IMG/VR virus record: IMGVR_UViG_3300045988_181536 | Location: 96,001-160,000 of that record | From: a virus | Reading direction: 5' to 3' (one strand) | Length of the DNA stretch: 64,000 nucleotides | In this document: in pieces, positions 3,126 through 60,161 of the stretch | Numbering within the stretch: the stretch's first letter is position 1 | Layout: each line of letters opens with the position of its first letter | Program-made: the position numbers and the translations under genes | The notes under the pieces: generated by a model | The model's input: the letters and a program-made list of their open reading frames with translations, nothing else | Told to the model about the DNA's origin: nothing | The model's database searches: none

Positions 3126-5722
3126 ATATGATAATAAAATCTTTACATTTAAAAAACTTCGGACAACATTCCGATTTATTTTTGGATATTAAAGGTCCTG
3201 TAATAGGCATAGTGGGGCGTAATGGATCTGGTAAATCGACTATTGTTTCTGCTTTGCAATATGCATTTACCGGAGAAACTACCAATAATATTCAAACGTA
3301 TATTAAAAAAGGCGAAACTTCCGCCGAAGTAGAAGTTATATTTGAGAAAAACGGTAAAACAGGCGTTATTAGACGTGGCATTAATACCAGAACTACTACC
3401 AGAAGTCTGACCTATGGTGATCTTATTCAAAAGCCTATTACTAAAGCTAAAGAATTTGACGCCATGATGGATCAAATTTTGGGAGTAGATAAACAAAATA
3501 TCTTAAGCGCTATATTTATTGCGCAAGGAGAAATTGCCAATATTCTTAGTCCGAGACTTTCGGAACGACTGGGCTTGTTTGCCAAATTGTTAAATTTAAA
3601 TTTCTTGTCCAAAAGATCTTACGTAGTTGACCAGACTTTAAATAAACTGAGATCTTCCGTTACAGATGTTGGCAGTTTAAAAAATAATTTGGAAGTTAAA
3701 ATTGAAAATTTAAAATCCAAAAACGAAGCCTGGGAATCTGCAGTTCAGGAAGCAAATGCGAAATATGTTAGCGCAACCTTTGTCAAAGATATATGGGAAT
3801 CCGCATCAAATTATATTCATGCTCAAAATGAGCATACACGATGGGAAACTAAATATCAAGAAGCATTAGCAACTCTTGTTGAACAAAAAAATAAGCTAAC
3901 CTCTGTAGCTGCAATTGCAGGGGTAGATGAATCTACGCTTATTCCTAGTATTACGACACAAATCGAAAGCTTAGAAAGTCAATTTAACGAAATAAGCGCA
4001 TTTTTAAAAAATCAACAGCTGATTATTGACGCTTGGAATAATTTAGTTTCAGCCAGAGAAGAAAATAAAATATTTAACCAGCTAAAGACCACGGTGTTTG
4101 CTGACGTACCACCTGACGTTGTGGAAACGACTGTGAGTGAATTTGACGAGTATCAAAACAACACAACCAAATTTGAAGATTGTTGCCTAAAATCCGAAAA
4201 GTGGAAAAACAAACTGTCTGAACTTGAGCAAGATATAAACAAAGCAACTTCCAAGATACAACAGGCAGAGGCCGCTATTCCTCGATTGGATCAACAAAGA
4301 AATAACTTGTGTTCAGTTGTGGCACAGCTAGAAACGCTGGCGAAAACCAAGCAGAAGCTAAAAGACAAGGTTAACAAAGATACTGCCAGCTGTCCTGTAT
4401 GCGGTCTAAAACTGATGCTTGGACAAGAGGTTTGTGATGGAGATATTGAAAGCATAAAACAAAATATTCAAACGCTTCAAACATCCCAGATTCAGCCCTT
4501 GGAAATACAGTTAAAAGAGGCAACTTCTCTAAAAGTAAACAATGGAGCTATCTTAAGAGTTTCAGAGCAAGAATTTAAGCGTATAAAAGCGGACTATGAT
4601 GAGTGCCAAACGCTTATGGTAGAACTGAAGTCTAAAATAGATGCTTATAAAAACGACTGGCCGAAAATTACACAAACTATTTACACAGTAAAAGAAAAGT
4701 TGCCTGAATATAAAGTGTTGTGGGAAAAAAATCAACGCAACACTTTGCAGGATATGATTGATCAAGTAACCAAAACCTTACAATCATTTAATCTTGATGA
4801 AAACAACATAGATGTCGTCAAATTAAAAGAAATTGTCAGCGCAAAAGAACAAGAACTGTCTAAGCTAAGGTCTGAAATATCTAATAAAAAAGATTTGTTA
4901 AGTAGGGCCACTACGATTACAGGGTCTATTTCTGCGCAGGAACAAGAAATATCTAAAACTCAAGAGACTATATCGCAGCTTAATCAAAATCTAAAAAATC
5001 ATAAGCTAAAACAAATACGCGATACACTTGAGCAAGATATAAAAAATGCCTATATTCTGGAAACGTTTAACCACTTCGTAATGATTCCTGAGGTGCAAAC
5101 AATTGCATCTGCAGCTGTGGATGTATATAATCAGCTAAATGCTGAAAAACAAGTCATTGATAATTTGCAGCAGCAGATTGACAATGATAAAAACTTGATC
5201 AATAAACTAGAAGCTGAGAATGCCAAGGTTTATGGTGAAGTTGAAGAATTGGCACGCATAAAGCAACTCTTGCAACCTCAAGACGGCGTAATTAAAAACT
5301 ATATCAATTATTTGTTTAAGTCGATTTCCGGATATATCAGCGAGTATTTGGCGTATATGAATGCCAACTTTATCATTCAAATTGAAGATAGAGCGACTGA
5401 AGAAGACTTGTCATTTAAGTTCCAAAGAATCGATAAGCCTAACGACAAATATTGGTACCCAATGTATCAATTGTCAGGTGGTCAAAAGATTAAGTTGTCC
5501 ATAGCGTTTCAATTAGCTATTCAGAAAATTATTTGCCCTGATTTAGGATTCTTGGTTTTAGATGAACCTACTACTCATTTAGATGAAGAATCCATAAAAG
5601 CGCTTAGCGAACTCTTGGAAAATGTCGGAAATATGTTAACCGGACAAAACGGTCAAGTATGGATCATTGATCATAACCATATCATAGACAAAGCATTTAC
5701 GACTGCAATTAACCTAGATTAG
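3089..5722 (+). CDS. sbcC: SbcC/Rad50-family ATPase (T4 gp46-like)
   Basis: N-terminal Walker A 'GRNGSGKST'. Long coiled-coil middle with a zinc hook 'CPVCG'. C-terminal ABC signature 'LSGGQK' and Walker B 'LVLDEPTTHLD'. The true start is probably ATG 3128 ('MIIKSLHLKNF'). Confidence 0.85.
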   Translation: MRKRSHLHLGKINMIIKSLHLKNFGQHSDLFLDIKGPVIGIVGRNGSGKSTIVSALQYAFTGETTNNIQTYIKKGETSAEVEVIFEKNGKTGVIRRGINTRTTTRSLTYGDLIQKPITKAKEFDAMMDQILGVDKQNILSAIFIAQGEIANILSPRLSERLGLFAKLLNLNFLSKRSYVVDQTLNKLRSSVTDVGSLKNNLEVKIENLKSKNEAWESAVQEANAKYVSATFVKDIWESASNYIHAQNEHTRWETKYQEALATLVEQKNKLTSVAAIAGVDESTLIPSITTQIESLESQFNEISAFLKNQQLIIDAWNNLVSAREENKIFNQLKTTVFADVPPDVVETTVSEFDEYQNNTTKFEDCCLKSEKWKNKLSELEQDINKATSKIQQAEAAIPRLDQQRNNLCSVVAQLETLAKTKQKLKDKVNKDTASCPVCGLKLMLGQEVCDGDIESIKQNIQTLQTSQIQPLEIQLKEATSLKVNNGAILRVSEQEFKRIKADYDECQTLMVELKSKIDAYKNDWPKITQTIYTVKEKLPEYKVLWEKNQRNTLQDMIDQVTKTLQSFNLDENNIDVVKLKEIVSAKEQELSKLRSEISNKKDLLSRATTITGSISAQEQEISKTQETISQLNQNLKNHKLKQIRDTLEQDIKNAYILETFNHFVMIPEVQTIASAAVDVYNQLNAEKQVIDNLQQQIDNDKNLINKLEAENAKVYGEVEELARIKQLLQPQDGVIKNYINYLFKSISGYISEYLAYMNANFIIQIEDRATEEDLSFKFQRIDKPNDKYWYPMYQLSGGQKIKLSIAFQLAIQKIICPDLGFLVLDEPTTHLDEESIKALSELLENVGNMLTGQNGQVWIIDHNHIIDKAFTTAINLD

Positions 5723-5726
5723 CGAA

Positions 5727-6179
5727 ATGAAAACCGTACTGCAAGAAATTCGGCTTATTTCTCCATTCTTGGGTAGCGGTAAACCGGATGAAAACGGATT
5801 AAGGCGAATCTTGTTAAATAATGTCAAGAAAAACGAAGTTAAGTTATTCTTAACTTCGTTTCTTAATAATTTTAAAAAGCTTACTAATGTAACAATAGAT
5901 AAAAATTTTCAAATTTATCCTGGAATGGTTCCTTCTGATAGAAATGTTCCAGTATTGTTTGAACGAAAACAGATATATATTGACGGAAAAGAACAGTTGT
6001 TTGAAAGCTTACCTGTAGGTTATACCGGATACCTAAAAATCCAATATAACCCTAAAGTTTGGGATGAAACATATCTGTTAAACGGAATTAAAACTATTGC
6101 TAACCATAACGGCATTACGCAATTTGGTGCTAAGCAAGGTTATGGAAAATTCATATTCACCAACAAAAAATCACATTAA
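5727..6179 (+). CDS. hypothetical protein
   Basis: ORF only. Confidence 0.3.
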   Translation: MKTVLQEIRLISPFLGSGKPDENGLRRILLNNVKKNEVKLFLTSFLNNFKKLTNVTIDKNFQIYPGMVPSDRNVPVLFERKQIYIDGKEQLFESLPVGYTGYLKIQYNPKVWDETYLLNGIKTIANHNGITQFGAKQGYGKFIFTNKKSH

Positions 6180-6401
6180 ATATATGCCTAACATAAAAAT
6201 TCGTGTTAACAAATCTCAACCGCATTTTGATCTGAAACAAATGAGACGAGATCAATACATGCAATTTAAAGTGCAAGAAACTGTAAAGAATACTTGTAGG
6301 AGGCTTGCAAAGCAAGCTAATGTTAATCCTTTTACGGACAACTATGTCAATCAACCAAAGGTTACGATTAGCTTTGATCTCACAATATCACCATTTCAAA
6401 A

Positions 6402-7832
6402 ATGCATGCAGAAATTTATTGGACAAATAACGATTTAATTGTTCGGTTGCCGAAAAGATGCAGAGAATTGGAATCGAGTTTAAAATATACTAAAAAAGAA
6501 TTGGTATTTAGTCCTGCACAGCGCAAGCGAATAACTAAAAAAACGACTAAGCATATTTTTAACATCATTCCTTCTTTGCAAGACAATATGGTCACGTATC
6601 AAACATTCCAAGGAATGTTTGATACGGTCGTTGATATAGTGCGTAAAAGTTATCCTGATGCCAAGGTGATTGATAAACGCTTGGCATTTCCGTTGCCTTT
6701 GTATGATAAACTTGGAGGTTTGAGATTTAACCAAGAGGAAGTATTGCGCAAGGGATTGGATAAAAACCGTAGCGGGTTGTTTAAATGTCCTACTCGTTAT
6801 GGTAAGACGCGACTTATTACCAACACCATTAATGTTTATCCCAATTTGCCAACTGTAGTTTTAGCCCCTGGCATTGACCTTTTACCTCAAACCATGGATA
6901 CAATTAAACAATGTTGTCCTGGACGTGAGGTAAAAGGTTTATTTACCGGAAGTAAAGACAGATATCCATCTGAGGACATTACTGTGTGTTCTTTGGATTC
7001 AATGCATAAATTGGATTTTGAGAATACCAAACTGGTGTTGGTGGACGAACCTCATTCAGCTGTAACAGAAAGCCGTGCACCGTATTTCCCAAGATTCTCC
7101 AATGCTCGAATCCTTGGGTTCGGGGCCACAACAGACGGAAGATGGGGAGGTGAAGATATTCTTATAACAGGACTTATGGGTCCGGTTCTTTCTCAGACAA
7201 CTTATACAGAATGTGTTAAGTTAGGCGCTTTGTGCCCGATTCATGTGTATATGATAAAGGTATCTTTTACGCCTAAGAATTATGTAAGAAGAGATTTAGC
7301 GTATAAATATCTGGTTCAACAGAATGCTGCATTTAATGCGCTTGTTGGTCATATCTGTAACAATATAATTCCCAAAGATTTTCAAACTTTGGTATTTATT
7401 GAAAACTCCAGTCAAGCCGAGGTGTTGTCGCAACAAGTAAATGATAGCATCATTGCCATGGATAAATTAATGAAAAACAAAAAAGAGCGGCAAGAGTTAT
7501 TTGCTAAAATGAAAGCAAATGAAATAAAACGCTGTATTTGTTCCAATATTTATTCCACTGGTGTTACTATCGACGAATTGCGATGTGAAATTAATTGTTG
7601 TGGGGGAGGCGCCGGTATTATGGCCACTCAAAAACCAGGAAGGCTCGCGGAAGTAAAACCCAACAAACCTGAGGGTATAATGATAGATTTTCTATTTATG
7701 CCTTCTGCTCACTGCAATCCGGCAAGCGGAGATGCAATGATTATGCGAGATTCCTATCTGCGTCTCAATGCCTACAGGGAACTAGGATATACAGTTGATA
7801 TTTTGGAAAACATTGAACAACTAAAAATTTAA
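6402..7832 (+). CDS. superfamily-2 (DExH-like) helicase
   Basis: Walker A 'CPTRYGKTRL', Walker B/DExH 'LVLVDEPHS', motif III-like 'FGATT', motif VI-like 'QKPGRLAE'. Confidence 0.55.
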   Translation: MHAEIYWTNNDLIVRLPKRCRELESSLKYTKKELVFSPAQRKRITKKTTKHIFNIIPSLQDNMVTYQTFQGMFDTVVDIVRKSYPDAKVIDKRLAFPLPLYDKLGGLRFNQEEVLRKGLDKNRSGLFKCPTRYGKTRLITNTINVYPNLPTVVLAPGIDLLPQTMDTIKQCCPGREVKGLFTGSKDRYPSEDITVCSLDSMHKLDFENTKLVLVDEPHSAVTESRAPYFPRFSNARILGFGATTDGRWGGEDILITGLMGPVLSQTTYTECVKLGALCPIHVYMIKVSFTPKNYVRRDLAYKYLVQQNAAFNALVGHICNNIIPKDFQTLVFIENSSQAEVLSQQVNDSIIAMDKLMKNKKERQELFAKMKANEIKRCICSNIYSTGVTIDELRCEINCCGGGAGIMATQKPGRLAEVKPNKPEGIMIDFLFMPSAHCNPASGDAMIMRDSYLRLNAYRELGYTVDILENIEQLKI

Positions 7833-11001: not shown

Positions 11002-14000
11002 ATGAAATCTTTAGAAACAATTCTCGCAAAACAAAATTTCGACGATTTACAAGTACAGTTTTATTCTCCTGGGAAACAAACTGTGTTACTTGAAGCATCA
11101 AAAGCTACTGTAGATTATTTGGTTAACTTTAGTAAGTCGGCACTGCCCTGCAAATGGATTACGGGAATTTTTTCTACTTATGAAGAAATAAAATCAGACG
11201 TATCACATGAATCTATTGGGCTTTTCTTTAAAAAGTACGACATAATAACAAATGCCAATTTACTTGAAATAAATCTTCGCAGTTTAACACACGGAAAGAC
11301 TTATTTAAATGAATTTGAGGTAGATTTGTGTTTCAATTATAATAAGCCTTATTGTTTGTTTCCTGAATTTGGGCGTCTAATATATGCATGTTTTACGCAA
11401 ACCATACAAATAAAACGTGACATTATAAATTATCTATTAAATCATTGTTATATAAAACTGCATAGTGTATGTAGATCAAATGCTTTAGAACGTCAGGATG
11501 CTTTGTTTTGTCAAGATTGGTTTGGAAGTAAACGTTTGCAAGAGAGGAATGCATTAACTCCCTTTCAAGGATTAAAAATTTGGCCTAAACTTGATAAGTA
11601 TTATTATAAATTTAATTATCATAAAGCTAAAAATTTTTCTCCTTATATTATAACTAAAATTTACAGTGAACACTTTGATCTTGAAATTGAAGTTGATAAA
11701 ATAGCTTCTTTTATTATAAATGTAGACCCTTCGACCAACAATGTGGAAACATTTCGTGAGTCTGCAGGAAATAAGATAAGTAATTTACTTCAAGAAATAT
11801 CCGATAAGTTTTCAAAAAAACTATTTGAGAACAAAAAATATATTAAACTCTTTAAAAAAGCAGAAAAACATCTCATTTTTGTTCCTAATTTTACTTCTAA
11901 ACACTTATTAAATAATACAGAACACACTAAAGAAGAAATTTTAAATTTTATTTTATTCGGCCTTACAAACAGCTGGAATGAACTAAATTCTTATGGAGTA
12001 CCCAGTGTAAGTTTACGTAATTATCAAAGTCTTGCGGAACCTATAAGATTTAAAGAAGACTATGTTCGCAATTTAATAAAAGTTATTTGTGAGTTTATAT
12101 CGTTACTTTCCGACATGTACAGTAGTGTTAGAAGTATCACAAAGGCTCTGCAGTGTTTTGATTGTGTAAAAAGTTATCTTGATTTTATTGACCATATACT
12201 AAACAGTTATAATAACAAGTTAAACCGTTTTAAAGGTATAAGTTTAAATTGCAAAATCTTTTACGCTATTCCTGACAGTAAATCAGATATCTTCTATGCA
12301 GAATGGTTACAAGGCATTGATCAAAACAAAGAAACTTATACAAAAAAGTATAATTTTAACATTTTCTCCAATTTATTTGATGTTACAGCTTTTGTACCAA
12401 AATATATTGATTCAAGTTTACAAGAATTTAAGATAAAAAATCTTGCGGAAGTATTAAGCATCAATACTGTCACTCGCCAAACGCTAAATACCTATATGGA
12501 AAGCAATCTTCCTATATGGGGAACCTTGTCTGAAAATATATTTCTCTCACCTCCACTTAGTTCAACTGTATCTCTGAACTTAAAACGCTCGTACAGTATT
12601 TCAAATCTGATATGCAACACTTTGTCTAATCCTGATGACCGTGTTTATTCAGAGTATGCAAGAAACTTGTTATTTTCAGAGACAACGAATAATAGTTTCT
12701 TTACGCTTACTACAAAAGAACATAGAAGTCTTGCAACTTATATTAAACCGCACGATGTAGAGCAATATTCAGTGTCTCCGATATTTAATTGGGATAAAAT
12801 AATATATTCACAAACTAAATATCAAGTTTCTACTTCACCAAATTTTTACTGTATAAATGCTAATCCAAATGAAGATCATATTAGTTGCGAATTGCCATTA
12901 TACAATGATACACTTACTGAATGTTATGGAAAATTTTATCCTATTATAAATCAAATCGACATTCCGGTATGGTATATACCAGGAAAAGTCATTCATAATC
13001 TTACTCGTTATTGCGACAATGGTATTGGATCAACATTTTTTACAAATGTTAGAAATCTGGTTATTAAATATTTGTGCGATGGATCAAATATCATAGATCA
13101 ATTATTTTATTTGGCTGTGAATCGAGAGGAGAGTGTGCTTACATCCTCTTTTGAAGATTACGTAATCGAACAAGCGCTGACCCATCCGTTGGTTCAAAGA
13201 CCATGGAATGAGTTTTTTGCAAAAAAACTCCGCAATAAAAAACCCAGTCCTCCAAATATTGTAAAGATTAATACAATTGTCAGCATTAATGGAAACTCTG
13301 TAACATCAAATGATGAGATCTTGGATTTTATTGAATCTAAAAATTTAGCACAATATTTTGAATTATATCGTAAAAATATTCAAAAAAATTGCCAAGATTT
13401 AGATGATTTAATTGAGAAAAAAAATAACTTATTGCTTAAAGTAGCTAAATATCAAACAGATATTCTTAATAAAATTAATCAAAATAATGGAATTGATTTG
13501 TTTAAATCCTGCGACGAAACGCTGAAAGCTTCTTGGATGAAACAAATCAATTTGTTGCAGCAAAACAAACGTATTATAAGCATTAATTTTGATCTGGTTA
13601 ATAAGCGTTTGGAAGTGGTTTTTAAACCGAAAAACATTGTAGATCCACGTACGGACATTGAATATGATATAGGTACAATTGCTGTATCTTGGCCTTTAGA
13701 TATAAATTTTAATGGTTGTATTAATCCTATATTGAATGTACACAATCAACTTAAAGTTTACTCTAAAAATATTAATCTGGAGGAATTTGGAAGTCTTTGT
13801 AGTCAAATTACTTCTTTAGATAATACGGAAATTGTTAACTTAGTGGATCAGTTATTTGAACCTGTGCACATTAAAGAAGCAAAGAATGTATTGTCAAGGA
13901 ATACACCAACAACGAATTTAACAATTTACGGAGAAAAAGCTGTACCTCATAGTTATCCGGAAGGGTCAGGAAGCGTATGTTTTGGAAACTACTCTTCAGC

Positions 14001-14919
14001 AATCAATAAAGCTGCAGAAGAAGTCAATCTCATGAATTTGGCAGGATTGACAATGTTAAATGCTGAATCTGCAAATTTAAAAGACACTTGGGGTAAAAGC
14101 TTACCCATGTTTCAAATCGCTGCGGGAAAATATTCAACCTTAGATCTTGCACAAAAAACATTTGAAAGGAAATTATTACGTAATAAAAAATACATTATTC
14201 CGGAATTAGGTAATCCTGATACCTATGTGCCGCATGGTCTTGATGCCATACAAGCTATGTTAGTAGCATGCACCAATAATACATGGCCTAAATTCTATAC
14301 CATTTGGGAAATTAATAGTAATGCTTACATGATAATACAATTTTTAAGCAACCTGTATAAAAGGATAGAACCTTACAGGGCTAATGCACGTGAGCTTGTA
14401 AGAAAGTTGTTTAAGGAAATTTGTGCGCGTATATATAAACCATTTACAGATCAAGAGCTTGAAGATTTAAATGCAAAAACTAAATTTAAATTTCAAGACT
14501 CCTCTATATGGAGATATATAACACGTGAAAATACAGATATTGACGTAGATAAGTGTAAACTATTTACAACAGATTATTCTTTAGAAGAATATTTTAATAA
14601 GTATACATTTAACTATAGTAGCTATGAATATTTAAACAGTTTGAAAGATTATGTAGATCTTGATCCTGAGAAAATGGAGCAAGTATTTGAAGAAAGTATT
14701 GAATGTGTTGTAAGAAATTGTTTATTCTATAAAGGTGATTATGAAGTGAAAAGATTTATGCCAAGACAGATTTTAGAATTTGAAGATCTAATTTTTGGCA
14801 AAGATTTTTACTTAATTGAAACAAACGATAAACATTATAATTTCTTGCTAAGAATTTGTAATAACTATTCATATAAAAGTATTACTGTAGAAGTTTTAAA
14901 GTTATTTAAAAAATCTTAA
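11002..14919 (+). CDS. giant hypothetical protein (1305 aa), compositionally atypical (very AT-rich, N/K/Y/I/F-rich)
   Basis: Uninterrupted 3.9-kb ORF. No catalytic motifs recognised. GC is markedly lower than in the flanking genes. Confidence 0.5.
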   Translation: MKSLETILAKQNFDDLQVQFYSPGKQTVLLEASKATVDYLVNFSKSALPCKWITGIFSTYEEIKSDVSHESIGLFFKKYDIITNANLLEINLRSLTHGKTYLNEFEVDLCFNYNKPYCLFPEFGRLIYACFTQTIQIKRDIINYLLNHCYIKLHSVCRSNALERQDALFCQDWFGSKRLQERNALTPFQGLKIWPKLDKYYYKFNYHKAKNFSPYIITKIYSEHFDLEIEVDKIASFIINVDPSTNNVETFRESAGNKISNLLQEISDKFSKKLFENKKYIKLFKKAEKHLIFVPNFTSKHLLNNTEHTKEEILNFILFGLTNSWNELNSYGVPSVSLRNYQSLAEPIRFKEDYVRNLIKVICEFISLLSDMYSSVRSITKALQCFDCVKSYLDFIDHILNSYNNKLNRFKGISLNCKIFYAIPDSKSDIFYAEWLQGIDQNKETYTKKYNFNIFSNLFDVTAFVPKYIDSSLQEFKIKNLAEVLSINTVTRQTLNTYMESNLPIWGTLSENIFLSPPLSSTVSLNLKRSYSISNLICNTLSNPDDRVYSEYARNLLFSETTNNSFFTLTTKEHRSLATYIKPHDVEQYSVSPIFNWDKIIYSQTKYQVSTSPNFYCINANPNEDHISCELPLYNDTLTECYGKFYPIINQIDIPVWYIPGKVIHNLTRYCDNGIGSTFFTNVRNLVIKYLCDGSNIIDQLFYLAVNREESVLTSSFEDYVIEQALTHPLVQRPWNEFFAKKLRNKKPSPPNIVKINTIVSINGNSVTSNDEILDFIESKNLAQYFELYRKNIQKNCQDLDDLIEKKNNLLLKVAKYQTDILNKINQNNGIDLFKSCDETLKASWMKQINLLQQNKRIISINFDLVNKRLEVVFKPKNIVDPRTDIEYDIGTIAVSWPLDINFNGCINPILNVHNQLKVYSKNINLEEFGSLCSQITSLDNTEIVNLVDQLFEPVHIKEAKNVLSRNTPTTNLTIYGEKAVPHSYPEGSGSVCFGNYSSAINKAAEEVNLMNLAGLTMLNAESANLKDTWGKSLPMFQIAAGKYSTLDLAQKTFERKLLRNKKYIIPELGNPDTYVPHGLDAIQAMLVACTNNTWPKFYTIWEINSNAYMIIQFLSNLYKRIEPYRANARELVRKLFKEICARIYKPFTDQELEDLNAKTKFKFQDSSIWRYITRENTDIDVDKCKLFTTDYSLEEYFNKYTFNYSSYEYLNSLKDYVDLDPEKMEQVFEESIECVVRNCLFYKGDYEVKRFMPRQILEFEDLIFGKDFYLIETNDKHYNFLLRICNNYSYKSITVEVLKLFKKS

Positions 14920-14984
14920 TTTTAAAAATTGACAAGTCTAAGCTATTTCTAAAGAAATATTTAAATTTTAAAAATAGCTTAAAA

Positions 14985-15335: not shown

Positions 15336-15407
15336 TCCCAGGTAGCTCAGCGGTAGAGCGGACGACTGTTAATCGTTTGGTCGATGGTTCAATCCCATCT
15401 CTGGGAG
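15336..15407 (+). tRNA. tRNA-Asn (anticodon GTT)
   Basis: Cloverleaf read by hand. Acceptor 'TCCCAGG/TCTGGGA', D-arm 'GCTC-AGCGGTA-GAGC', anticodon stem 'GACGA/TCGTT' with loop 'CTGTTAA' (GTT), T-arm 'GATGG-TTCAATC-CCATC'. CCA is not encoded. Confidence 0.85.
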
Positions 15408-21628: not shown

Positions 21629-21811
21629 AAAGGTGTTAAAATTTAAAGAGAAGAATCTTAAAAGAATTAGAGAAAAAATAACCAAAATTTAAAATGACAA
21701 TAAAACACCATACAATAATCCTAAATTAAAAAGCGATTATTGCATATCCATTAAGTAAAATTTTTTAAATAAAAAAAAAACAAACCATGTGTAAGTGTCA
21801 ATAGAAATTTC

Positions 21812-23182
21812 TTGATTAGTAAATCAATCCCATGCTTCAATCTATATCCCACAATGAGCACAGCTAAAACCTACATACTTGATGACAGATTATTAAAAAT
21901 AGATCTGTCCGCTTTGGAAAAAACATGCACAGCATTGAATTTTAAGTTAAGTCAACAAATACAAAGATTAGTTACGCGATTGCTTACAGTACATTTTACA
22001 GGCAAGTTGCATGTCATAGATCATAACCATTTGGAATTATCATTGCCTGATCCAGAATTATTGCAGGATGATGGTCCTAAAGAGTTAATGTCCAAGCATC
22101 TTTATGTAAACTTATCAAAATTTGCAGCAGAGGGTCATAATTGCGCTGCACGCTGTGTTAAAACCAATCGGTTTTATAATATAAAGGATTTGTTGGAAAT
22201 GCGTCCCATAGGATTAAGACATAAAGACAAGTCTTATAAATGGTATATAACTTGGGATCCGGATAAATTTTTAAAGAATTATAAAAATAAAGATTTATTG
22301 ACCTCTTCTTTAGTATTTAATTCCGAAGATGCTTTAGAGAATAAATGGATTTCTCCCGGCACATGCATTCCACTAAATAAATTGCCTGTATCCCATCCTG
22401 CAGTCTCTTATTTAAATGACAGGGGTTATACAGATATGGATGCTCTTGTCCGCCAGTTTAACGCTTCGTTTTGCACTGAGGAAAACCCGCAACTTAAACA
22501 TCTAAAATTCGGTAAGGATACTGAAGGCTATATAATTGACCCTTTTAAATTCTTTACCCCTCAAGGGTGTATTATTTTTACCGCTTTTCAATTAGGCCAG
22601 CCTAAATTATGGCAAGCAAGAATTTTAGATAAAAAATTAGGCAATGATAAATTGCATTATATGCATTTTGTCAATGACCCATTTAAAAGAATAAGCGGGT
22701 ATTATAAAGTAGCCGAAAAAGACGCTACAGGTAAATACATACCTTTACAGGGTGTGTCTGATTCCATTATAAAAAGAAAATATTATTTATCTCCAGGTTC
22801 TAAGGCCGGTAATGTTTTGATGGGTTATGATGCCGCGAGAGAATTTAATTTATCCCGTCCGTCAGGGAAGAAAGTTATAGGGCTTTGTGAAGGCGTTTTA
22901 GATGCTGCCAGAATGGGGCCGCCGTTTTGCGCTTATTTGGGAGGCGCTTTGTCCGTAGGACAGCTAAAATTAATTAGCAATGGCATGTTTGATAAAATAA
23001 TTCTTGCCGTAGACCATGATAAAGTCGGAAGCACTACGGCAGCTAAGTTGAGGCGTAGCATTTCTATGCTGGGAGGAATTGATATAGATGAATTAGACTA
23101 TCCTTTGAAGTTTAAAGATTTAGGAGAAATAACCGACAATAACCTGATTTTAGACTTAAAAAAACAATACGATTTATCTTGA
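21812..23182 (+). CDS. DnaG-like DNA primase (Toprim domain)
   Basis: Toprim 'CEGVLDAARMG' (E-G-x-x-D) and 'ILAVDHDKVG' (DxD). It lies between the helicase and the polymerase genes. Confidence 0.6.
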   Translation: MISKSIPCFNLYPTMSTAKTYILDDRLLKIDLSALEKTCTALNFKLSQQIQRLVTRLLTVHFTGKLHVIDHNHLELSLPDPELLQDDGPKELMSKHLYVNLSKFAAEGHNCAARCVKTNRFYNIKDLLEMRPIGLRHKDKSYKWYITWDPDKFLKNYKNKDLLTSSLVFNSEDALENKWISPGTCIPLNKLPVSHPAVSYLNDRGYTDMDALVRQFNASFCTEENPQLKHLKFGKDTEGYIIDPFKFFTPQGCIIFTAFQLGQPKLWQARILDKKLGNDKLHYMHFVNDPFKRISGYYKVAEKDATGKYIPLQGVSDSIIKRKYYLSPGSKAGNVLMGYDAAREFNLSRPSGKKVIGLCEGVLDAARMGPPFCAYLGGALSVGQLKLISNGMFDKIILAVDHDKVGSTTAAKLRRSISMLGGIDIDELDYPLKFKDLGEITDNNLILDLKKQYDLS

Positions 23183-34267: not shown

Positions 34268-34338
34268 AGAATGTTGCTTAACTTACTGAAATTTACAAGT
34301 AAAGTTTAGTTTATAATCACTAACTTTTAATAAACTAT

Positions 34339-34653
34339 ATGCTTCGTATTTGTCCATGTGATGGCATAATCATAATGGATAAGGCTTTATTAGAGTTAGT
34401 GAAACAAAAAAAGCTTACTTATCATAAGGCATTGACGGACGAAAAATATAGGAAATATGTCTATTGGTATGAGGTATATTCTCTATCAACAGATGAAGAT
34501 AGCCAATCAGACTGTGCTCGAGAATCGAGATTTGACAATTTAAAATCAAAATTTGCTCGACGAAAGCTGTCACGGTTATATCAAGCTATAGAATTTCGAC
34601 GACGAACGCGCAAACCTTGTGATCAAAATAAATCTTCAAAGCGTACATCATAA
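34339..34653 (+). CDS. hypothetical basic protein; its 3' end overlaps the first tandem-repeat copy
   Basis: ORF only. Confidence 0.3.
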   Translation: MLRICPCDGIIIMDKALLELVKQKKLTYHKALTDEKYRKYVYWYEVYSLSTDEDSQSDCARESRFDNLKSKFARRKLSRLYQAIEFRRRTRKPCDQNKSSKRTS

Positions 34654-54418: not shown

Positions 54419-55786
54419 ATGGAGCAGCAAACAATCAAAAAGAGAGGGCGTCCCGCTGGCTATAGAAAGCAAGCAGACGGTACTTGGGTTAGGGTTATAA
54501 CGACTGAACCCAAACAGTCACAATCATCTAAACCAAAGCCCGTGCAGCCGGAACATGCGTCTACACCTAAAAAACGAGGTCGCCCCGCAGGTTATAGAAA
54601 AATGCCTGATGGTACTTGGGTAAAGCAAGCACCTGAAATAATGCATACAAAAACGAATGTGTCTGTTAATAAACGTGGTAAAAAGTCTAAACTGAAAAAT
54701 TCGGATGCAGACTTATTGATAGAATCAGATTTAGCTATATCCCCTACAGCTGCAGATTTAAAATCTTCAAAAGATCATGCCTCAAATGTTTTTTCGTTTG
54801 TCAATATTGTTGTAGATATAAGTTTAAAAGATAAAGGAATATCTGACGAAGGTTTCATTCATAATGATTCCGTATTTAAGCTATTTGCTCAGAAATATAA
54901 TTCTGAAACTCCTATAGAATTTTATTTAGATGATCCTTATAATAGTTTAACTGAAGAAGAGTATTCCAATTTTTATGATTGGTTAGAAATTGAAGGGTAT
55001 TTTAAGCGAAATAATGTAAGCATTACTTCTTCCGCAAATGGATCTTCAGCTAAAAGGTTGTTTACTTTAGTTTTAAAAGGGGGCATACCTTTCTTTATTT
55101 TATGTCCTGTAGTTTGTCATCAAGACGGTTCTTATAATATTAAAATTGGAGGCATTGTACAGAATCAGATAGCTAATTCAAAAGCCACATCCCTATCAGG
55201 AATTTGGGGGATATTTCCCTCAAAACATTTAAAAACTTTATCTTCTGAATCTAAAGCTTTGATTTCGGATCTAAGGTTTACGCCTGTGGGTTTTTACGCT
55301 TCAACTCCTTCATTTAATAATGATCAATTTGAAGTGTTTTTTGATGGATTGGTAGTTGAACTTGGTTCAAAGGCACACTCGAAAACTTTAGTAAGTTTGG
55401 AAATAGATGACATGGTTCCTGCAAATGTTGAATCAACAGCAGTGCCACATACTGTTTCGACATTGCTTGCAGAGTCTCATGAATTTGAGGATTCAGATGA
55501 GCAAGAAAAGGTTTCCAACGAAGAATATGCTGATGATTACGATTTAGACGATTATAAGTTAAAAATATCGCATAAAAAAGTTAACGATTTCGTTTTAGAG
55601 GAAGACGGTGTTTATAGGCGTCGTTTTAAGGATAGAGCCAGTAACTATGTTCCTGCAAACCATAATGATATTTATTATGATGATACGAACATAGAAAGAG
55701 ACAACTATCAAGAAATCGGAGAAGGTCATTATAGAAGTGTTAATCATCAACTAAGTGATGATATAGATTTTGATTATTGGGATTAA
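54419..55786 (+). CDS. AT-hook protein: tandem duplicated 'KKRGRPAGYRK-x-DGTWV' motifs at the N-terminus and an acidic C-terminal half
   Basis: 'IKKRGRPAGYRKQADGTWVRV' and 'PKKRGRPAGYRKMPDGTWVKQ' lie 40 aa apart. The C-terminus is rich in D/E/Y. Confidence 0.45.
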   Translation: MEQQTIKKRGRPAGYRKQADGTWVRVITTEPKQSQSSKPKPVQPEHASTPKKRGRPAGYRKMPDGTWVKQAPEIMHTKTNVSVNKRGKKSKLKNSDADLLIESDLAISPTAADLKSSKDHASNVFSFVNIVVDISLKDKGISDEGFIHNDSVFKLFAQKYNSETPIEFYLDDPYNSLTEEEYSNFYDWLEIEGYFKRNNVSITSSANGSSAKRLFTLVLKGGIPFFILCPVVCHQDGSYNIKIGGIVQNQIANSKATSLSGIWGIFPSKHLKTLSSESKALISDLRFTPVGFYASTPSFNNDQFEVFFDGLVVELGSKAHSKTLVSLEIDDMVPANVESTAVPHTVSTLLAESHEFEDSDEQEKVSNEEYADDYDLDDYKLKISHKKVNDFVLEEDGVYRRRFKDRASNYVPANHNDIYYDDTNIERDNYQEIGEGHYRSVNHQLSDDIDFDYWD

Positions 55787-55825
55787 TTTGCATAATTTTC
55801 AAACACAAAATTAAAAAGGAATAAA

Positions 55826-56068
55826 ATGCGCACTCTTAAAGTTTCACTAAGACGGAATAATTCTACTGTTGCAGTTTTTGATTATGAGGATGATAAAAAA
55901 TTAGTGTCAGATGCTGAGGTTGTTGGCTTGCTCGCAAAGGAATTGCTTAGGCATGTGCGAGACGAATCGCCGACGGCCTTACTGTTTGATGTTGATGATG
56001 CAGAAGAAGCAATCAATACGTATGCTAGTGGGGAGATGCCTTGTGCAATCGTTTTGAGTGATTATTAA
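55826..56068 (+). CDS. hypothetical small protein
   Basis: ORF only. Confidence 0.3.
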   Translation: MRTLKVSLRRNNSTVAVFDYEDDKKLVSDAEVVGLLAKELLRHVRDESPTALLFDVDDAEEAINTYASGEMPCAIVLSDY

Positions 56069-56111
56069 GACAAATCTTTAAGGAAATAATAGTTTAAAAA
56101 AACAATAAAAA

Positions 56112-56765
56112 ATGGAAACACAATTCGAAAAAGTTATTCAAGAAGTAAAAGCCTCAAACAAGGCATTTCCAAATGAAGCTTATAACAAATATAAGTTGCA
56201 GTTTTTAAATGCTTTAAGAAAGTATGGTGAAATTGTTTTACCTTCATTCCAAGATGATAATATGCAGCTTTGGAATATTGGAGATACCGAGGGTAATCAG
56301 GATATAATTATTAATGAAGATGGGTGTTTTAATTCTTATAACAACAACCTTTTACTTACGTGGGTAGTCAAGCCTGCTAATTTAGAATCAGCAAATTATT
56401 TGCAGCTTTGTTATTCTGATAAAGAAGAAGATAAATGGCCTTATACTGCATTTTTTATGCATTTGCATGGAGATGTGCGTGCAAATTATAGTCAGTGTAT
56501 TTTATTGCCATATAATAAAAAAATACTGTTTGATTTGTTATTCGATGATGACGATTTTCGTTATTATATAAAGAGTGACAAGTTTGATATCTACTATGAA
56601 CCCTTGAATGAACAATCTGTTTTAAGGGTTCAAGGGGAAGATGTGAATGATGAAATTTCCACTTATAAAACTAAGCAAGAATTGTTAGATGAAGATATTC
56701 CTGAAGAAGTCATAACCGCAATCCAAGAAGATCCATTATTTGGAGAGGACATCAGAGATGAATAA
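56112..56765 (+). CDS. hypothetical acidic protein
   Basis: ORF only. Confidence 0.3.
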   Translation: METQFEKVIQEVKASNKAFPNEAYNKYKLQFLNALRKYGEIVLPSFQDDNMQLWNIGDTEGNQDIIINEDGCFNSYNNNLLLTWVVKPANLESANYLQLCYSDKEEDKWPYTAFFMHLHGDVRANYSQCILLPYNKKILFDLLFDDDDFRYYIKSDKFDIYYEPLNEQSVLRVQGEDVNDEISTYKTKQELLDEDIPEEVITAIQEDPLFGEDIRDE

Positions 56766-57099
56766 GCGAAACAATAAACCTGAATTGATTATTAGAGAAC
56801 GAGAAGATCCTTTTAAAAAGGACCTTCTGGATAGCATTGGTGCTTTAAAGGAAGCAATTGGGCTTTTGACATCAGAGGTACAACAGTTGAGAGCTAGCAT
56901 ATTAATGAGTGGTTTAGATAGGATTTCAGATAAACAAAAAGATACTATTACGCAACCAACAACTCCTAGTAATCCTCTTTCGCCATATTATCCTCCAACC
57001 ACTCCTTATCCTTCAACCACTCCTTATCCTCAGCTTGACCCCAACTATGTTTGGACTTCTACAGCAGCAAGCTCGGATAATACTTCTGGCAAGGCATGA
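56740..57099 (+). CDS. hypothetical protein with a Pro/Thr/Tyr-rich C-terminus; its stop codon abuts the TnpB element
   Basis: 'PTTPSNPLSPYYPPTTPYPSTTPYPQLDPNY'. Confidence 0.3.
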   Translation: MERTSEMNKRNNKPELIIREREDPFKKDLLDSIGALKEAIGLLTSEVQQLRASILMSGLDRISDKQKDTITQPTTPSNPLSPYYPPTTPYPSTTPYPQLDPNYVWTSTAASSDNTSGKA

Positions 57100-58380
57100 A
57101 GAAATTCATATTCTATTTAGTCAACTACTAATCATACAAGCTGATTAGCTTGTAACTAGGTATTACTACCCGCTACAATAGGCTTGTTGACGGAAGCCCG
57201 AAAGTTATTTGCTATATTGATAGCTGCATTTAAATCTGCATTGCATTCAAATCCACATTTCTTACACTTGAAATGGGATTGTGTAGTTCGATTGCCTTTA
57301 ACGGTATACCCACATCTACTGCATTTTTGCGATGTATAACGAGCATCAACGTGTTGAACACTACAGCCCTTAGCTAATGCTTTGTATGTTAGGAATTGCT
57401 CTAGCTGGAAGAAACTCCACGAATTTACTTTAGCCCTTTCGGACTTTCGCAATTTGCTACTACGATCTCTAATACCATCTAGTTTTTCAAGAACTATAGT
57501 AGTACCGGGAACGCACATAGAAACAATATTCTTACTAATACAATGATTCATATCCGTAACGAAACGGTTCTCCTTCATACTTAATGTACGGAGGTGTCTT
57601 TTAGCGGATTTAGAACCCTTGGATTGTAGTTTGGATCTTAAAATAGCATAGCGTTTCTTTACTTGTAGAACATGTTCTCCAGAGAAGATAGTACCATCAG
57701 ATAGTGTAGCTATATTGACTATGCCTCGATCTATACCGAGTACATTATCATTGGAACATTGCACATCCTCAACCTCCTTCTCAAATATGATGTGTAGGAA
57801 TAATTTGCCTTTCTTTAATGAGAGTGTAGCACCTTTCCTACGCCACGAGAAGTATTGTTTAAAGTGGTCTGTTAGATTTACTTTAAATCGTAATCTACCA
57901 TTCAATGTTAGGATAGAAACCTCGAAACGATCGAACCATATATTAAAGGAGTTCTTAGTTAATCTTAAAGCCATTTGTTTGGATTTAGGACATTTGAATT
58001 TCTTATGTTTCTTTCGTTCTAGTTTCGTAGTGGCTTTGATGGCTTCCGCTGCCTGATCCCGAACTTGTGTAGCGAGATCAGCTGGTAGTGAGAATTGTGT
58101 TCTACAATAATCATAGGTTTGATCGTGAAGCTTTCGTTTATCAAAATTACGATCCTTGAAACCTATTTCACAAATATAGTTATACGCCTCAGTATAGGCT
58201 CGAAATGTAGGAAGTAAATCGGTAGGATTTACGTTCTCTAGCTTAAGCTTTACTGTGCGGAGTAATTTCATTTAATAGTTAATATATTCATATATTAATA
58301 TAATAATGTCAACAACAAATACTTCAAAACACTAAACAATAGAAAGGAGACTTCCGAAATTCCTTGCAATAGACAATCTA
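57100..58380 (-). mobile_element. solo IS200/IS605-family (IS1341-like) element encoding TnpB only; boundaries approximate
   Basis: A minus-strand tnpB lies in an otherwise plus-strand region. A hairpin 'caagctgattagcttg' (57138-57153) sits directly 3' of the tnpB stop. Nested hairpins 'ccgaaattccttgcaatagacaatctattgcgtatcctttcgg' (~58345-58390) sit on the 5' side. No tnpA is present. Confidence 0.55.
57156..58271 (-). CDS. tnpB: TnpB (OrfB) RuvC-like RNA-guided endonuclease family protein
   Basis: RuvC-I 'GIDRGIVNIATL', RuvC-II 'IVLEKLDGI', zinc finger 'CSRCG...CKKCG', RuvC-III 'NADLNAAINIA'. Confidence 0.85.
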   Translation of the reverse strand: MKLLRTVKLKLENVNPTDLLPTFRAYTEAYNYICEIGFKDRNFDKRKLHDQTYDYCRTQFSLPADLATQVRDQAAEAIKATTKLERKKHKKFKCPKSKQMALRLTKNSFNIWFDRFEVSILTLNGRLRFKVNLTDHFKQYFSWRRKGATLSLKKGKLFLHIIFEKEVEDVQCSNDNVLGIDRGIVNIATLSDGTIFSGEHVLQVKKRYAILRSKLQSKGSKSAKRHLRTLSMKENRFVTDMNHCISKNIVSMCVPGTTIVLEKLDGIRDRSSKLRKSERAKVNSWSFFQLEQFLTYKALAKGCSVQHVDARYTSQKCSRCGYTVKGNRTTQSHFKCKKCGFECNADLNAAINIANNFRASVNKPIVAGSNT

Positions 58381-58566
58381 TTGCGTATCCTTTCGGGACT
58401 AACAATGAGGTTTTTGCTTTATTTAATGAGATGGCAAATGTCATCTCTCATTCTTATACCAGTTATTGCCGCTATTGCTGACCCTGTGTGGTCAGCAATT
58501 ATTGGCAATTTAATTGGAGGTTGTGTATTTTTCCTTGTGGATAAAAAGATATTTAACTTAAAATAA
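58381..58566 (+). CDS. small hydrophobic membrane protein
   Basis: 61 aa with two predicted TM helices. Confidence 0.3.
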   Translation: MRILSGLTMRFLLYLMRWQMSSLILIPVIAAIADPVWSAIIGNLIGGCVFFLVDKKIFNLK

Positions 58567-58581
58567 TAGGATGCAATAAAT

Positions 58582-58851
58582 ATGGAGTATGTATTTATCG
58601 TAACATGCACTGTTGCTGCTGTAGTTGCAATTTTTCTACTATCACTGTGCTTTGTAGCTGTATTGCAAAGATTTATTTTTGCTGACACTGCGAGCGACCA
58701 TGGTTCTGATCACAAGCATTATTGGTCATTTTTGCGCAGTGAGTGCAACGTGTATAAGGATATCAATAATATTGAACATAAAAAAATAATTGTAGTCTAT
58801 AATTGCCTACATTGTGGAAAATTAAAAAAGGAAGAAATAATATTATACTAA
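58582..58851 (+). CDS. small membrane protein with a C-terminal CxxC
   Basis: N-terminal TM 'FIVTCTVAAVVAIFLLSLCFVAVL'; C-terminal 'CLHCG'. Confidence 0.3.
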   Translation: MEYVFIVTCTVAAVVAIFLLSLCFVAVLQRFIFADTASDHGSDHKHYWSFLRSECNVYKDINNIEHKKIIVVYNCLHCGKLKKEEIILY

Positions 58852-58855
58852 TAAA

Positions 58856-59593
58856 ATGAAAATAATAGATCCAAGTGTTAGTTTATTAGGACAAACCTAT
58901 GCATTGGATGACTTGAGTGACGAGTCTCCAATGAAGCTACTAGAGTTATGTATACGAAACTGTTATAAATCCGAAGACAAGATTACTGAAGATTCTTGGA
59001 AGTCTATAATAAAGCTTGTATTAGATAATGGACACACTTCAACTCTTGAGCATGTTTCGTTTACATTTAGAATAATAACATCAAGAGATGTATTGCAGGA
59101 ATATGCAAGACATAGAATCCAAAGTTTGTCTGTGGAAAGTACTAGGTACTGTAATTACGGGGATTCTAAGAAGGGACTAACCTTTGTAAAACCTCAATGG
59201 ATTACCTGGGAACAAATAGAAAAGGCAAACAATTTGTTACAATCCAGGGACGAATCTTCGGTATTGTATGAATTAAACAATCCAGATATTGATAAGGATA
59301 TAAAGTGCGTTTGTAATTGGATTGAAGATATAAAACGTGCTGAGTTTTCATATAATATGAAGTTGGACTTAGGTTGGAAACCCCAACAAGCTCGTGTGTC
59401 TTTGCCGGGGTGTTTAAAGACCGAGATCATATCTACTATGAATATAAGGTCATTGCTAAACTTTCTTGATCTTAGAACTTCACCAAGAGCTCACCCTGAT
59501 ATTCAAGTAATAGCTAAAAGTATGGAGGATATACTTAAAGAAAAGTATCCAGTTATATTTACTAACCCAAGTCAACAAGAAAAGGAGAGTTAA
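58856..59593 (+). CDS. thyX: flavin-dependent thymidylate synthase ThyX
   Basis: ThyX signature 'LEHVSFTFRIITSRDVLQEYARHRIQSLSVESTRY' (RHR-x7-S-x-R-Y). Confidence 0.8.
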   Translation: MKIIDPSVSLLGQTYALDDLSDESPMKLLELCIRNCYKSEDKITEDSWKSIIKLVLDNGHTSTLEHVSFTFRIITSRDVLQEYARHRIQSLSVESTRYCNYGDSKKGLTFVKPQWITWEQIEKANNLLQSRDESSVLYELNNPDIDKDIKCVCNWIEDIKRAEFSYNMKLDLGWKPQQARVSLPGCLKTEIISTMNIRSLLNFLDLRTSPRAHPDIQVIAKSMEDILKEKYPVIFTNPSQQEKES

Positions 59594-59603
59594 TATTGAT
59601 ATA

Positions 59604-60161
59604 ATGAAAAAGTATAACATTATTTACGCTGATCCTCCCTGGACATATCAAGATAAGAACTGTCAAGGTGCTTGTGCCCGGCATTATAAAACAATGACGG
59701 ATTCCGAATTACAGTCACTTCCAATTAAAGATATAGCTGCGGATGACTGTATATTGTTTATGTGGGCTACGTATCCCAAACTAAAAGAAGCCCTAGATGT
59801 GATTGATGCTTGGGGATTTAAATATAAAACCATAGCTTTTCAGTGGATAAAACAGAATAAATCTGGAGACGGATTATTCTTTGGATTAGGAAGGTGGACC
59901 AGAGGCAACAGTGAACCTTGTTTATTAGCAATTAAGGGTAGACCTAAAAGAATCAGCCCAAAGGTATCACAGATTGTGTTTAGTCCATTACGCAATCATT
60001 CGCAAAAACCTGATTGTGTAAGAGATAAAATTATAGAACTAGTAGGTGATTTGCCTAGAATAGAATTATTTGCTAGAAATAAAGCTGATGGTTGGGATAG
60101 TTGGGGAGACGAAATAGATTCTGATATCAGCTTTGACTTAAACGATAACAATAAGGAGTAA
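59604..60161 (+). CDS. MT-A70-family DNA N6-adenine methyltransferase
   Basis: 'IIYADPPW', 'ILFMWAT', 'WGF', 'GRWTRGNSEPCLLAIKG', 'HSQKPD', 'ELFAR...GWDSWGDE'. Confidence 0.85.
   Translation: MKKYNIIYADPPWTYQDKNCQGACARHYKTMTDSELQSLPIKDIAADDCILFMWATYPKLKEALDVIDAWGFKYKTIAFQWIKQNKSGDGLFFGLGRWTRGNSEPCLLAIKGRPKRISPKVSQIVFSPLRNHSQKPDCVRDKIIELVGDLPRIELFARNKADGWDSWGDEIDSDISFDLNDNNKE

Follow-up and report, generated by a model that had tools for sequence, protein, structure and literature searches.

The presence of a lone tnpB gene in the genome of a phage raises the question of whether the gene belongs to an element that still moves and, if so, what an RNA-guided nuclease encoded by it would be directed against. 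Such a gene is found in IMG/VR virus record IMGVR_UViG_3300045988_181536, within the 64-kb stretch analyzed here in its entirety (positions 96,001 to 160,000 of the record, hereafter termed the window). Positions 57120–58404 of the window (minus strand, 1285 bp) very likely represent a non-autonomous, tnpB-only insertion sequence of the IS200/IS605 family (IS1341-type) in a large human-gut phage, whose TnpB would be guided by an omega-RNA to the empty allele of the insertion site. The same endpoints were observed in two further copies, at loci L010 and L011 (the L-numbers, from L002 to L115, are labels of comparison loci on other contigs). The first-pass annotation, which was made from the letters of the window alone, had likewise proposed a solo IS1341-like tnpB element on the minus strand, and ends of the IS200/IS605 type are indeed present.

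That the element has moved is evident from its copies and from sites that lack it. Three IMG/VR contigs carry DNA that is 94–97% identical, and the copies at L010 and L011 (94–95% identical) have in common with the window only the segment from about 57118/9 to 58398/58415, their flanks being unrelated; the element thus occurs in at least three different flanks, with ten distinct right-end junctions. All copies end ...GATTAGTAGTTGAC and diverge right afterwards, while the ten distinct insertion sites, those from a metagenome scan included, diverge exactly past GTTGAC; the right end was placed at 57120 because the plus-strand gtcaac begins there. The comparison with related phages that the first-pass annotation had called for showed that these also harbor the unoccupied site, i.e., at L032, L039, L040 and L041. 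L039 and L040 read GGCAAGGCATGAAGAAATTCATATTCTATTTA|ATGAGATGGCAAATG, L041 and L032 differ from this sequence by three substitutions, and these empty-site phages are mosaic relatives with flanks that are about 95% identical. Conversely, the window has, at 14920|14921, an empty version of the site occupied in L010 (CTTAAT|TTTAAAAATTGACAAG; 14912–14935, plus strand), at the end of an open reading frame (ORF) of 1305 amino acids (aa; 11002–14919), the occupied version being CTTAAT|TTTAAATCCCG...GTTGAC|TTTAAAAATTGACAAG.

The left end (LE; 58340–58404, minus strand) adopts a two-tier hairpin, in which an outer stem pairs 58398→58391 with 58359→58352 and an inner stem pairs 58384→58378 with 58372→58366 around an AUUGU loop. 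Nested hairpins had been suspected of marking the left end at approximately 58345–58390, and both stems were found to covary, with compensatory change in 11 of the 16 hairpin pairs across six copies. In these copies the inner stem comprises 7–8 bp and its loop conforms to YTTRT, with GGATAC and AGGAA as invariant internal loops. The LE inner hairpin furthermore resembles hairpin H2 of the right end (see below), the loop CTTGT being common to both. Covarying subterminal hairpins are therefore found at both ends, there are no terminal inverted repeats, and the likeness of the LE and right-end hairpins is the pattern expected for ends that are bound by a Y1 transposase; the end features of IS200/IS605 elements have been described at family level (PMC13565253).

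Alignment of the six copies with an intact left end exposed a motif located 6–7 nt before the LE core, namely CTCAT in the window and TTAAT, TTCAT, TTCAT, ATCAT and TTCAT elsewhere, i.e., a TCAT-type motif in five of the six. The first 6–7 nt of the LE vary among copies, and the first six LE nucleotides of L010 are the first six nucleotides of its target. Both occupied/empty pairs agree with a boundary directly after the motif and require no target duplication; for this reason the left boundary was put at 58404, and the target-adjacent motif (TAM), which is also the transposase target motif, at 58405–58409 (CTCAT on the minus strand). This boundary is uncertain by 6 nt, since the conserved core starts at 58398. 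A left boundary at 58398 itself was considered and discarded, as it gave the incoherent flanks GTTAG, TTAAA and AAAAA, the empty sites and further copies putting the TCAT-type motif 6–7 nt outward. Definition of both ends and of the TAM in the terms of the IS200/IS605 family, which had been proposed at the outset, was in this manner obtained from copies and empty sites.

Comparison with the empty alleles also identifies the interrupted gene, which encodes a small membrane protein and was split by the element in its 5′ part. In the empty alleles the ATG of this gene overlaps the stop codon of the upstream Pro-rich ORF (ATGA; MKKFIFYLMRWQMSS...), and the sequence across the insertion point reads GGCATGAAGAAATTCATATTCTATTTA|ATGAGATGGCAAATG. 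In the window, the severed first eight codons (MKKFIFYL) remain on the right-end side (57096–57119, plus strand), so that the right end at 57120 lies 20 nt from the stop codon of the Pro-rich ORF (57097–57099) and not flush against that ORF as originally described. Past the left end the gene resumes from 58405 as ATGAGGTTTTTGCTTTATTTA ATGAGATGG (MRFLLYL MRWQ...), and in its present form (58405–58566, plus strand) it encodes a 53-aa small hydrophobic protein with the start MRFLLYLMRWQ, whose start codon is contained in the ATGAG complementary to the TAM. The 21 nt at 58405–58425 (seven codons, MRFLLYL) are missing from the empty alleles and match the N-terminal part of the homologue of this gene in L012.

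Several observations were made around this junction. Upstream of the LE, the beginning of the right-end flank is repeated, over 6 nt in the window, 6 nt in L010, 10 nt in L110 and 16 nt, with a 4-nt insert, in L115 (repeat at 1394–1413). The stretch between repeat and TAM (58405–58425 in the window, 1312–1368 in L110) provides the divergent small gene with an in-frame start and with its N-terminal codons. In three copies (window, L011 and L110) the left end lies directly against a start codon, since in each the ATG complementary to the TAM opens an ORF of 53–77 codons, and this recurrent arrangement may keep the divergent small gene expressed. L012 was examined as a clean empty site and set aside: the neighboring gene differs there, hence it is only an alternative allele. 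A third insertion, encoding a 363-aa TnpB and a 133-aa Y1 transposase, is located in L032 (1430–2944) between the small membrane-protein gene and an 89-aa gene, about 35 bp of the window being absent at that point. The short stretch around the small membrane-protein gene is an insertion hotspot.

The right end (RE) doubles as a structured RNA module (57120–57198, minus strand), which covariation and a covariance model support as the 3′ part of the predicted omega-RNA scaffold. RNAalifold analysis of ten phage sequences (240-nt alignment) indicated three hairpins in the last 83 nt: H0 (57198→57181; GGCUU-CCGUCAAC-AAGCC), H1 (57177→57151; UGUAGCGGGU-AGUAA-UACCUAGUUACA), which possesses a GUAA loop of the GNRA type and includes the tnpB stop codon, and H2 (57149→57127; GCUAAUCAG-CUUGU-AUGAUUAGU). 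In addition, the H0 loop GUCAAC (57191→57186) pairs with the final six bases of the element, GUUGAC (57125→57120), in a pseudoknot; the 2023 ISDra2 structure papers reportedly describe a pseudoknot that adjoins the guide, as it does in the window RNA module. All three hairpins and the pseudoknot show covariation. With the pseudoknot included, 98.4% of the cells of the phage alignment are paired and 11 pairs are compensatory (0–2 in slid controls), while an alignment of 20 sequences from phages, bacteria and archaea has 97% of cells paired and compensatory change in 16 of 30 pairs, a C:G pair of the pseudoknot being replaced by U:A in three of these sequences. G:U pairs are near-invariant, GNRA loops are present, and the compensations in H1 alter the C-terminal residues of TnpB (AGSNT / ASSNA / ANSNV), which argues that selection in H1 acts on the RNA rather than on the protein.

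A covariance model constructed from 16 non-phage (bacterial and archaeal) sequences returned a single match in the window, full-length and at 57120–57198 of the minus strand (64.8 bits, E=5e-14), this being the type of search that the first-pass annotation had recommended. The H0 motif occurs in 61 contigs from bacteria and archaea of many phyla, and 37 of its 62 genomic occurrences sit at the 3′ end of a TnpB homologue. The module occupies the last 79 nt of the element and stops exactly at the element boundary. An omega-RNA had earlier been suggested at 57100–57160: a structured RNA that reaches the right end and takes its guide from the flank was retained from that proposal, whereas the coordinates were revised to 57120–57198 for the module and 57104–57119 for the guide. 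The 6-bp hairpin on which the proposal was based (caagctgattagcttg) does exist as a palindrome at 57137–57152, 3 nt past the stop codon, but it is not the conserved hairpin. It was not supported as an RNA element, having zero compensatory changes and variation that only breaks pairing in several copies; moreover, it cannot coexist with H1 and H2, both of which covary, and thus competes with them. A permissive Rfam scan of 55500–60000 gave chance-level matches only, the module matching no Rfam family, and a literature search using the RNA motif sequence returned unrelated papers only. A second, longer variant of the module (98 nt) is present in L013 (17349–17446), 6 kb from the first tnpB of that 327-kb viral contig, which therefore carries at least two elements of this clade.

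The tnpB gene itself (57156–58271, minus strand; 371 aa plus stop) encodes a protein that matches Pfam families OrfB_IS605 (E=4e-12) and Cas12f1-like_TNB (E=6e-23). The complete RuvC triad and CxxC...CxxC zinc finger that had been recognized by eye are both present, as D181 (GIDRG), E262 (VLEKL) and D346 (NADLNAA), and as C317, C320, C336 and C339, respectively; all seven residues are invariant in a family alignment of 43 relatives with identities down to 48%. A sequence search of the PDB returned Cas12f and TnpB proteins with aligned catalytic motifs (phmmer 1e-23 to 1e-20 for Cas12f), GIDRG, IVLEKL and NADLNAA corresponding to GIDLG, IQMEDL and NADYNAA of solved Cas12f. An AlphaFold (AF2) model generated from the 43-sequence alignment reached a mean pLDDT of 88.4, and its top Foldseek matches were AsCas12f (E=2e-20; TM-score normalized to query, TMq, 0.64–0.68) followed by the TnpB proteins of ISFba1 and ISDra2 (TMq about 0.50–0.59). 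These matches extend along the whole length of the protein (about 390–440 alignment columns), and the model shows the WED-REC-RuvC-TNB fold over the full length. The dN/dS of tnpB against other copies is 0.09–0.39. The invariant residues, full-length fold match and low dN/dS together identify an intact tnpB under purifying selection, and the product is predicted to be an intact nuclease capable of cleavage. Upstream of tnpB, a TTGACA that may represent a −35 box is found in all copies (58307–58312, minus strand, by eye), although a consensus promoter scan gave nothing over shuffled expectation and did not pick it up.

A plausible source of transposase was identified in the same phage population. 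A right-end scan led to L019/L020 and a protein search to L021, where a 133-aa Y1 transposase gene (Pfam Y1_Tnp, E=8e-32) is divergent from a gene for a 365-aa TnpB; the partner TnpB is 36% identical to that of the window. These sister elements (L020 5522–7134; L021 about 5483–7134) possess H2-type hairpins in both LE and RE and a TAM of TTTAT or ATTAT. The last 75 bp of L020 are 97% identical to the window right end, the corresponding figure for L021 being about 70% over 247 bp, and the tnpA+tnpB element of L032 mentioned above is a third with the same right end. L021 and the solo copy L010 are located on one contig. The solo element could be moved in trans by the TnpA of its sister. The right end of L020, being 97% like that of the solo element despite TnpBs that are only 36% identical, also suggests that lineages have exchanged the RNA/right-end module. 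When the modules of L020 and L021 (7056–7134 in both) are compared, L020 is seen to carry a G:A mismatch in H0 at the apparent junction. Furthermore, L042 (ERZ857629 NODE-48) is a gene-less LE+RE miniature of the tnpA+tnpB family of about 154 bp (RE match 1277–1312, minus strand), resembling a PATE or MITE.

What, then, would the window TnpB be guided to? In TnpB systems the omega-RNA guide is the flank past the right end (PMC8612924, PMC10055086), and the predicted 16-nt guide of the window element, directly outside the right end at 57104–57119 (minus strand), is TAAATAGAATATGAAT. In L039 and L040, where the site is empty, this 16-mer is located, base for base, directly 3′ of CTCAT (...CATCTCAT|TAAATAGAATATGAATTTCTTCATGCC), whereas at the occupied site of the window it is GTTGAC, and not the TAM, that precedes it. 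No other match to the guide was found in the 64-kb window at up to two mismatches. The position of the 16-mer after CTCAT in L039 and L040 indicates that the predicted ribonucleoprotein is programmed against the empty allele. It had been suggested beforehand that such a nuclease could bias inheritance of the locus; the proposal gains support from the identity of guide and adjacent TAM with the empty allele of sister phages, and a bias of this kind may operate here. The window also holds unoccupied targets for the sister tnpA+tnpB element (minus sense, 21800–21830 and 34330–34360). The first, 21814|21815 (...GATTTACTAAT|CAAGAAATTTCTATTG), is matched by the L020 guide at 16 of 16 positions and has CTAAT instead of TTTAT, while the second, at about 34337 (...AGTTTAT|TAAAAGTTAGTGATTA), is matched by the L021 guide at 15 of 16 and has the TAM TTTAT.

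According to the mechanism that we propose, a transcript over the 3′ end of tnpB would be processed to an omega-RNA, the last 16 nt of which (UAAAUAGAAUAUGAAU) derive from the flank. TnpB loaded with this RNA would cut DNA in which CTCAT is followed by the guide sequence, i.e., the uninterrupted small membrane-protein allele of sister phages, and would spare the occupied site, where GTTGAC replaces the TAM before the same 16 nt. Following excision by a TnpA acting in trans, or upon co-infection with an insertion-free phage, the break would be repaired from an occupied copy, and the element would thereby be retained or copied (homing). A bolder proposal, which we regard as possible and advance tentatively, is that TnpB elements spread between co-infecting gut-phage genomes through RNA-guided cleavage of empty alleles and recombinational repair, with no need for TnpA. 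Such TnpA-free spread would fit three observations: sister phages harbor empty alleles that match exactly alongside the occupied ones, the window in turn offers targets to the sister element, and some copies in related phages have lost the LE hairpins but keep an intact tnpB and RNA module, the one tested among them (L115) being under purifying selection.

The latter copies, L112, L113, L114 and L115, are located on related large gut-phage contigs and consist of a full-length tnpB (370–376 aa) and the RNA module, the left-end hairpins having been deleted; two of the four end GTTGAT instead of GTTGAC. For L115 the dN/dS against the window is 0.15. Other copies have decayed further, L012 containing a 5′-truncated copy and L045 an RE-only remnant made up of the last 22 codons and the right end. 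L002 (3690–3720, on the contig that also holds L029) carries the same insertion as the window with identical sequence, except that a 24-bp deletion abutting the right end has taken its last base and the entire guide; the Pro-rich ORF there runs into the right end (119 aa).

A number of points weigh against our interpretation of a mobile element with an omega-RNA-guided nuclease. The TAM is deduced from six copies, one of them being TTAAT, and the stems of the window copy contain three mismatches that its closest copies, such as L010, lack (two C:A mismatches in the LE and one in H2), which could weaken recognition by TnpA. A tblastn search using a Y1 transposase query revealed no tnpA within the 64-kb window, in keeping with the original reading of a solo gene. 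Upstream of the 79-nt module, searches for conserved structure were negative, both over 170 nt in 43 sequences and in the 240-nt phage alignment, and the covariation of H2 could come from TnpA recognition of single-stranded DNA and not from RNA. Finally, the 21 extra nucleotides at 58405–58425 mean that a single clean insertion into an L039-type allele is an incomplete story. As origins of these nucleotides and of the LE-side repeats, an alternative upstream cleavage by TnpA, an ancestral allele with three repeats, and a later recombination with an L012-type allele were considered; a three-repeat allele was not found in the viral contigs searched, and L110 is without a TAM before its repeat.

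The concern over H2 can be extended into an account in which the element still moves as DNA, its 3′ structures being only single-stranded DNA signals for TnpA, while TnpB does something else or nothing. The loop CTTGT and the similar stems of H2 and the LE inner hairpin are as would be anticipated for transposase-binding hairpins, but H0, H1 and the pseudoknot covary without any LE counterpart, and H1 has a GNRA tetraloop, keeps its G:U pairs and undergoes compensations that change amino acids. Since this account also sits poorly with an invariant catalytic triad, a low dN/dS and a module that is kept at the 3′ end of TnpB genes in bacteria and archaea, we consider it improbable. Alternatively, tnpB might be stranded or domesticated: a stable gene that has ceased to move and serves the phage, for instance in TldR-like transcriptional control or in defense against rivals. 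One phage lineage carries the insertion as a fixed trait in many samples, L112–L115 retain tnpB and RE after deletion of the LE hairpins (with the low dN/dS of L115), and the window LE has its two mismatches, all of which would suit domestication; the first-pass annotation had similarly allowed for an end-less domesticated copy without a conserved right end or RNA. The window copy, in contrast, has both ends, including a conserved right end with RNA structure, has near-identical copies in other flanks and a polymorphic site, retains its nuclease residues, unlike TldR, and has a guide that matches the empty allele and neither a promoter nor a foreign genome. Domestication of the window copy is accordingly judged very improbable.

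More serious, if still doubtful, is the notion that the machinery functions as proposed and that the pay-off goes to the phage, the nuclease killing or out-replicating co-infecting sister phages that bear the uninterrupted allele (marker exclusion). The exact TAM and 16-nt target in L039 and L040, which are from the same metagenome as other carriers, and the near-perfect targets for the sister element in the window would both serve such an end. With flanks that are about 95% identical, however, repair from the occupied genome, and hence homing, would be as likely as loss, and sequence data do not separate exclusion from homing. A mobile tnpB-only element whose guide matches its own empty site continues to be the interpretation that we favor.

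The phage that carries the element is large and uncultured, and the locus is part of its replication and nucleotide-metabolism region: the window encodes SbcC-like and DnaB-like proteins, a primase, a ribonucleotide reductase, a helicase and an exonuclease, with ThyX and an MT-A70 methylase adjoining the locus. The ORFs flanking tnpB gave no Pfam match. A megablast search of INPHARED with the locus gave no match, which indicates that there is no isolated relative among deposited phages, and tblastn against the same collection returned only distant tnpB genes of <60% identity. The exact TnpB protein is, by comparison, encoded on 20 human-gut metagenome contigs from several samples, always in the context of the window. 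Homologues number roughly 1600, and relatives at 62–96% identity sit on contigs of 115–176 kb. A different TnpB, which bears a helix-turn-helix domain (Pfam HTH_OrfB_IS605; 399 and 419 aa), is encoded beside the ThyX gene in L002 (90–1289) and L012 (15625–16884); the L012 copy interrupts the MT-A70 methylase gene, whose window counterpart (59604–60161) is intact. The sole tRNA gene of the window is a tRNA-Asn (GTT; 15336–15407, plus strand).

TnpB, omega-RNA, IS1341-type elements and phage tnpB genes are already known, and since the homing role of TnpB and its guide RNAs is established and tnpB is common in phages, the element itself is ordinary. It shares with the IS1341 group of the IS200/IS605 family and with TnpA-bearing IS605 partners (IS608, ISDra2) the lack of terminal inverted repeats, a subterminal hairpin at each end, a tnpB directed to the right end, the occurrence of tnpA-less copies and a gene-less 154-bp derivative beside autonomous copies and, apparently, insertion 3′ of a short left-end motif (family features in PMC13565253). 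It differs from the studied elements in its TCAT-type motif (as opposed to TTAC, TTTAA/TTAAC or TTGAT), in its carrier, a large lytic-looking gut phage, and in a partner TnpB that is merely 36% identical despite the common right end. The TnpB proteins of ISDra2 and ISFba1, structurally resolved with their omega/reRNA (PDB 8exa, 8h1j, 8iaz), have the same fold and RuvC triad as the window protein with its zinc-finger (TNB) domain, and their scaffold likewise overlaps the 3′ end of the gene and stops at the right end, past which a guide derived from the flank follows, yet their sequences are only 15–18% identical to the window TnpB. The best matches in both sequence and structure (TMq up to 0.68) are Cas12f proteins of type V-F (AsCas12f 8j12/8dzj, CnCas12f1 8hr5, OsCas12f 9nzq); these comprise 400–500 aa as against 371 aa, and, in contrast to Cas12f systems, the window element is without a CRISPR array or tracrRNA, its guide being fixed by the insertion site.

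With regard to outcome, the closest parallel is offered by the free-standing homing endonucleases of T-even phages (SegF, SegB and others) and by 'transposon non-restorative homing', where the allele of a co-infecting relative is cut and repair copies the nuclease locus. Recognition is by protein in the T-even systems, whereas here it would be by RNA and TAM, and self would be told from non-self by the presence or absence of the insertion. TldR, a domesticated prophage TnpB, is also phage-borne and equipped with a guide RNA, but it has lost its nuclease residues as well as the ends of the transposon, and its targets are promoters (PMC10705468), while the window copy keeps the triad and both ends, with a guide that equals its own empty site.

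Homing of IS605 elements in phages and plasmids has been proposed as theory in a 2026 review (PMC13565253). The locus described here constitutes a natural test case for such homing between viral genomes, with the added value that occupied, empty, autonomous, miniature and decayed copies are available in one phage population. It also provides a compact predicted nuclease of 371 aa together with a well-delimited 79-nt 3′ RNA module that is conserved from phages to archaea.

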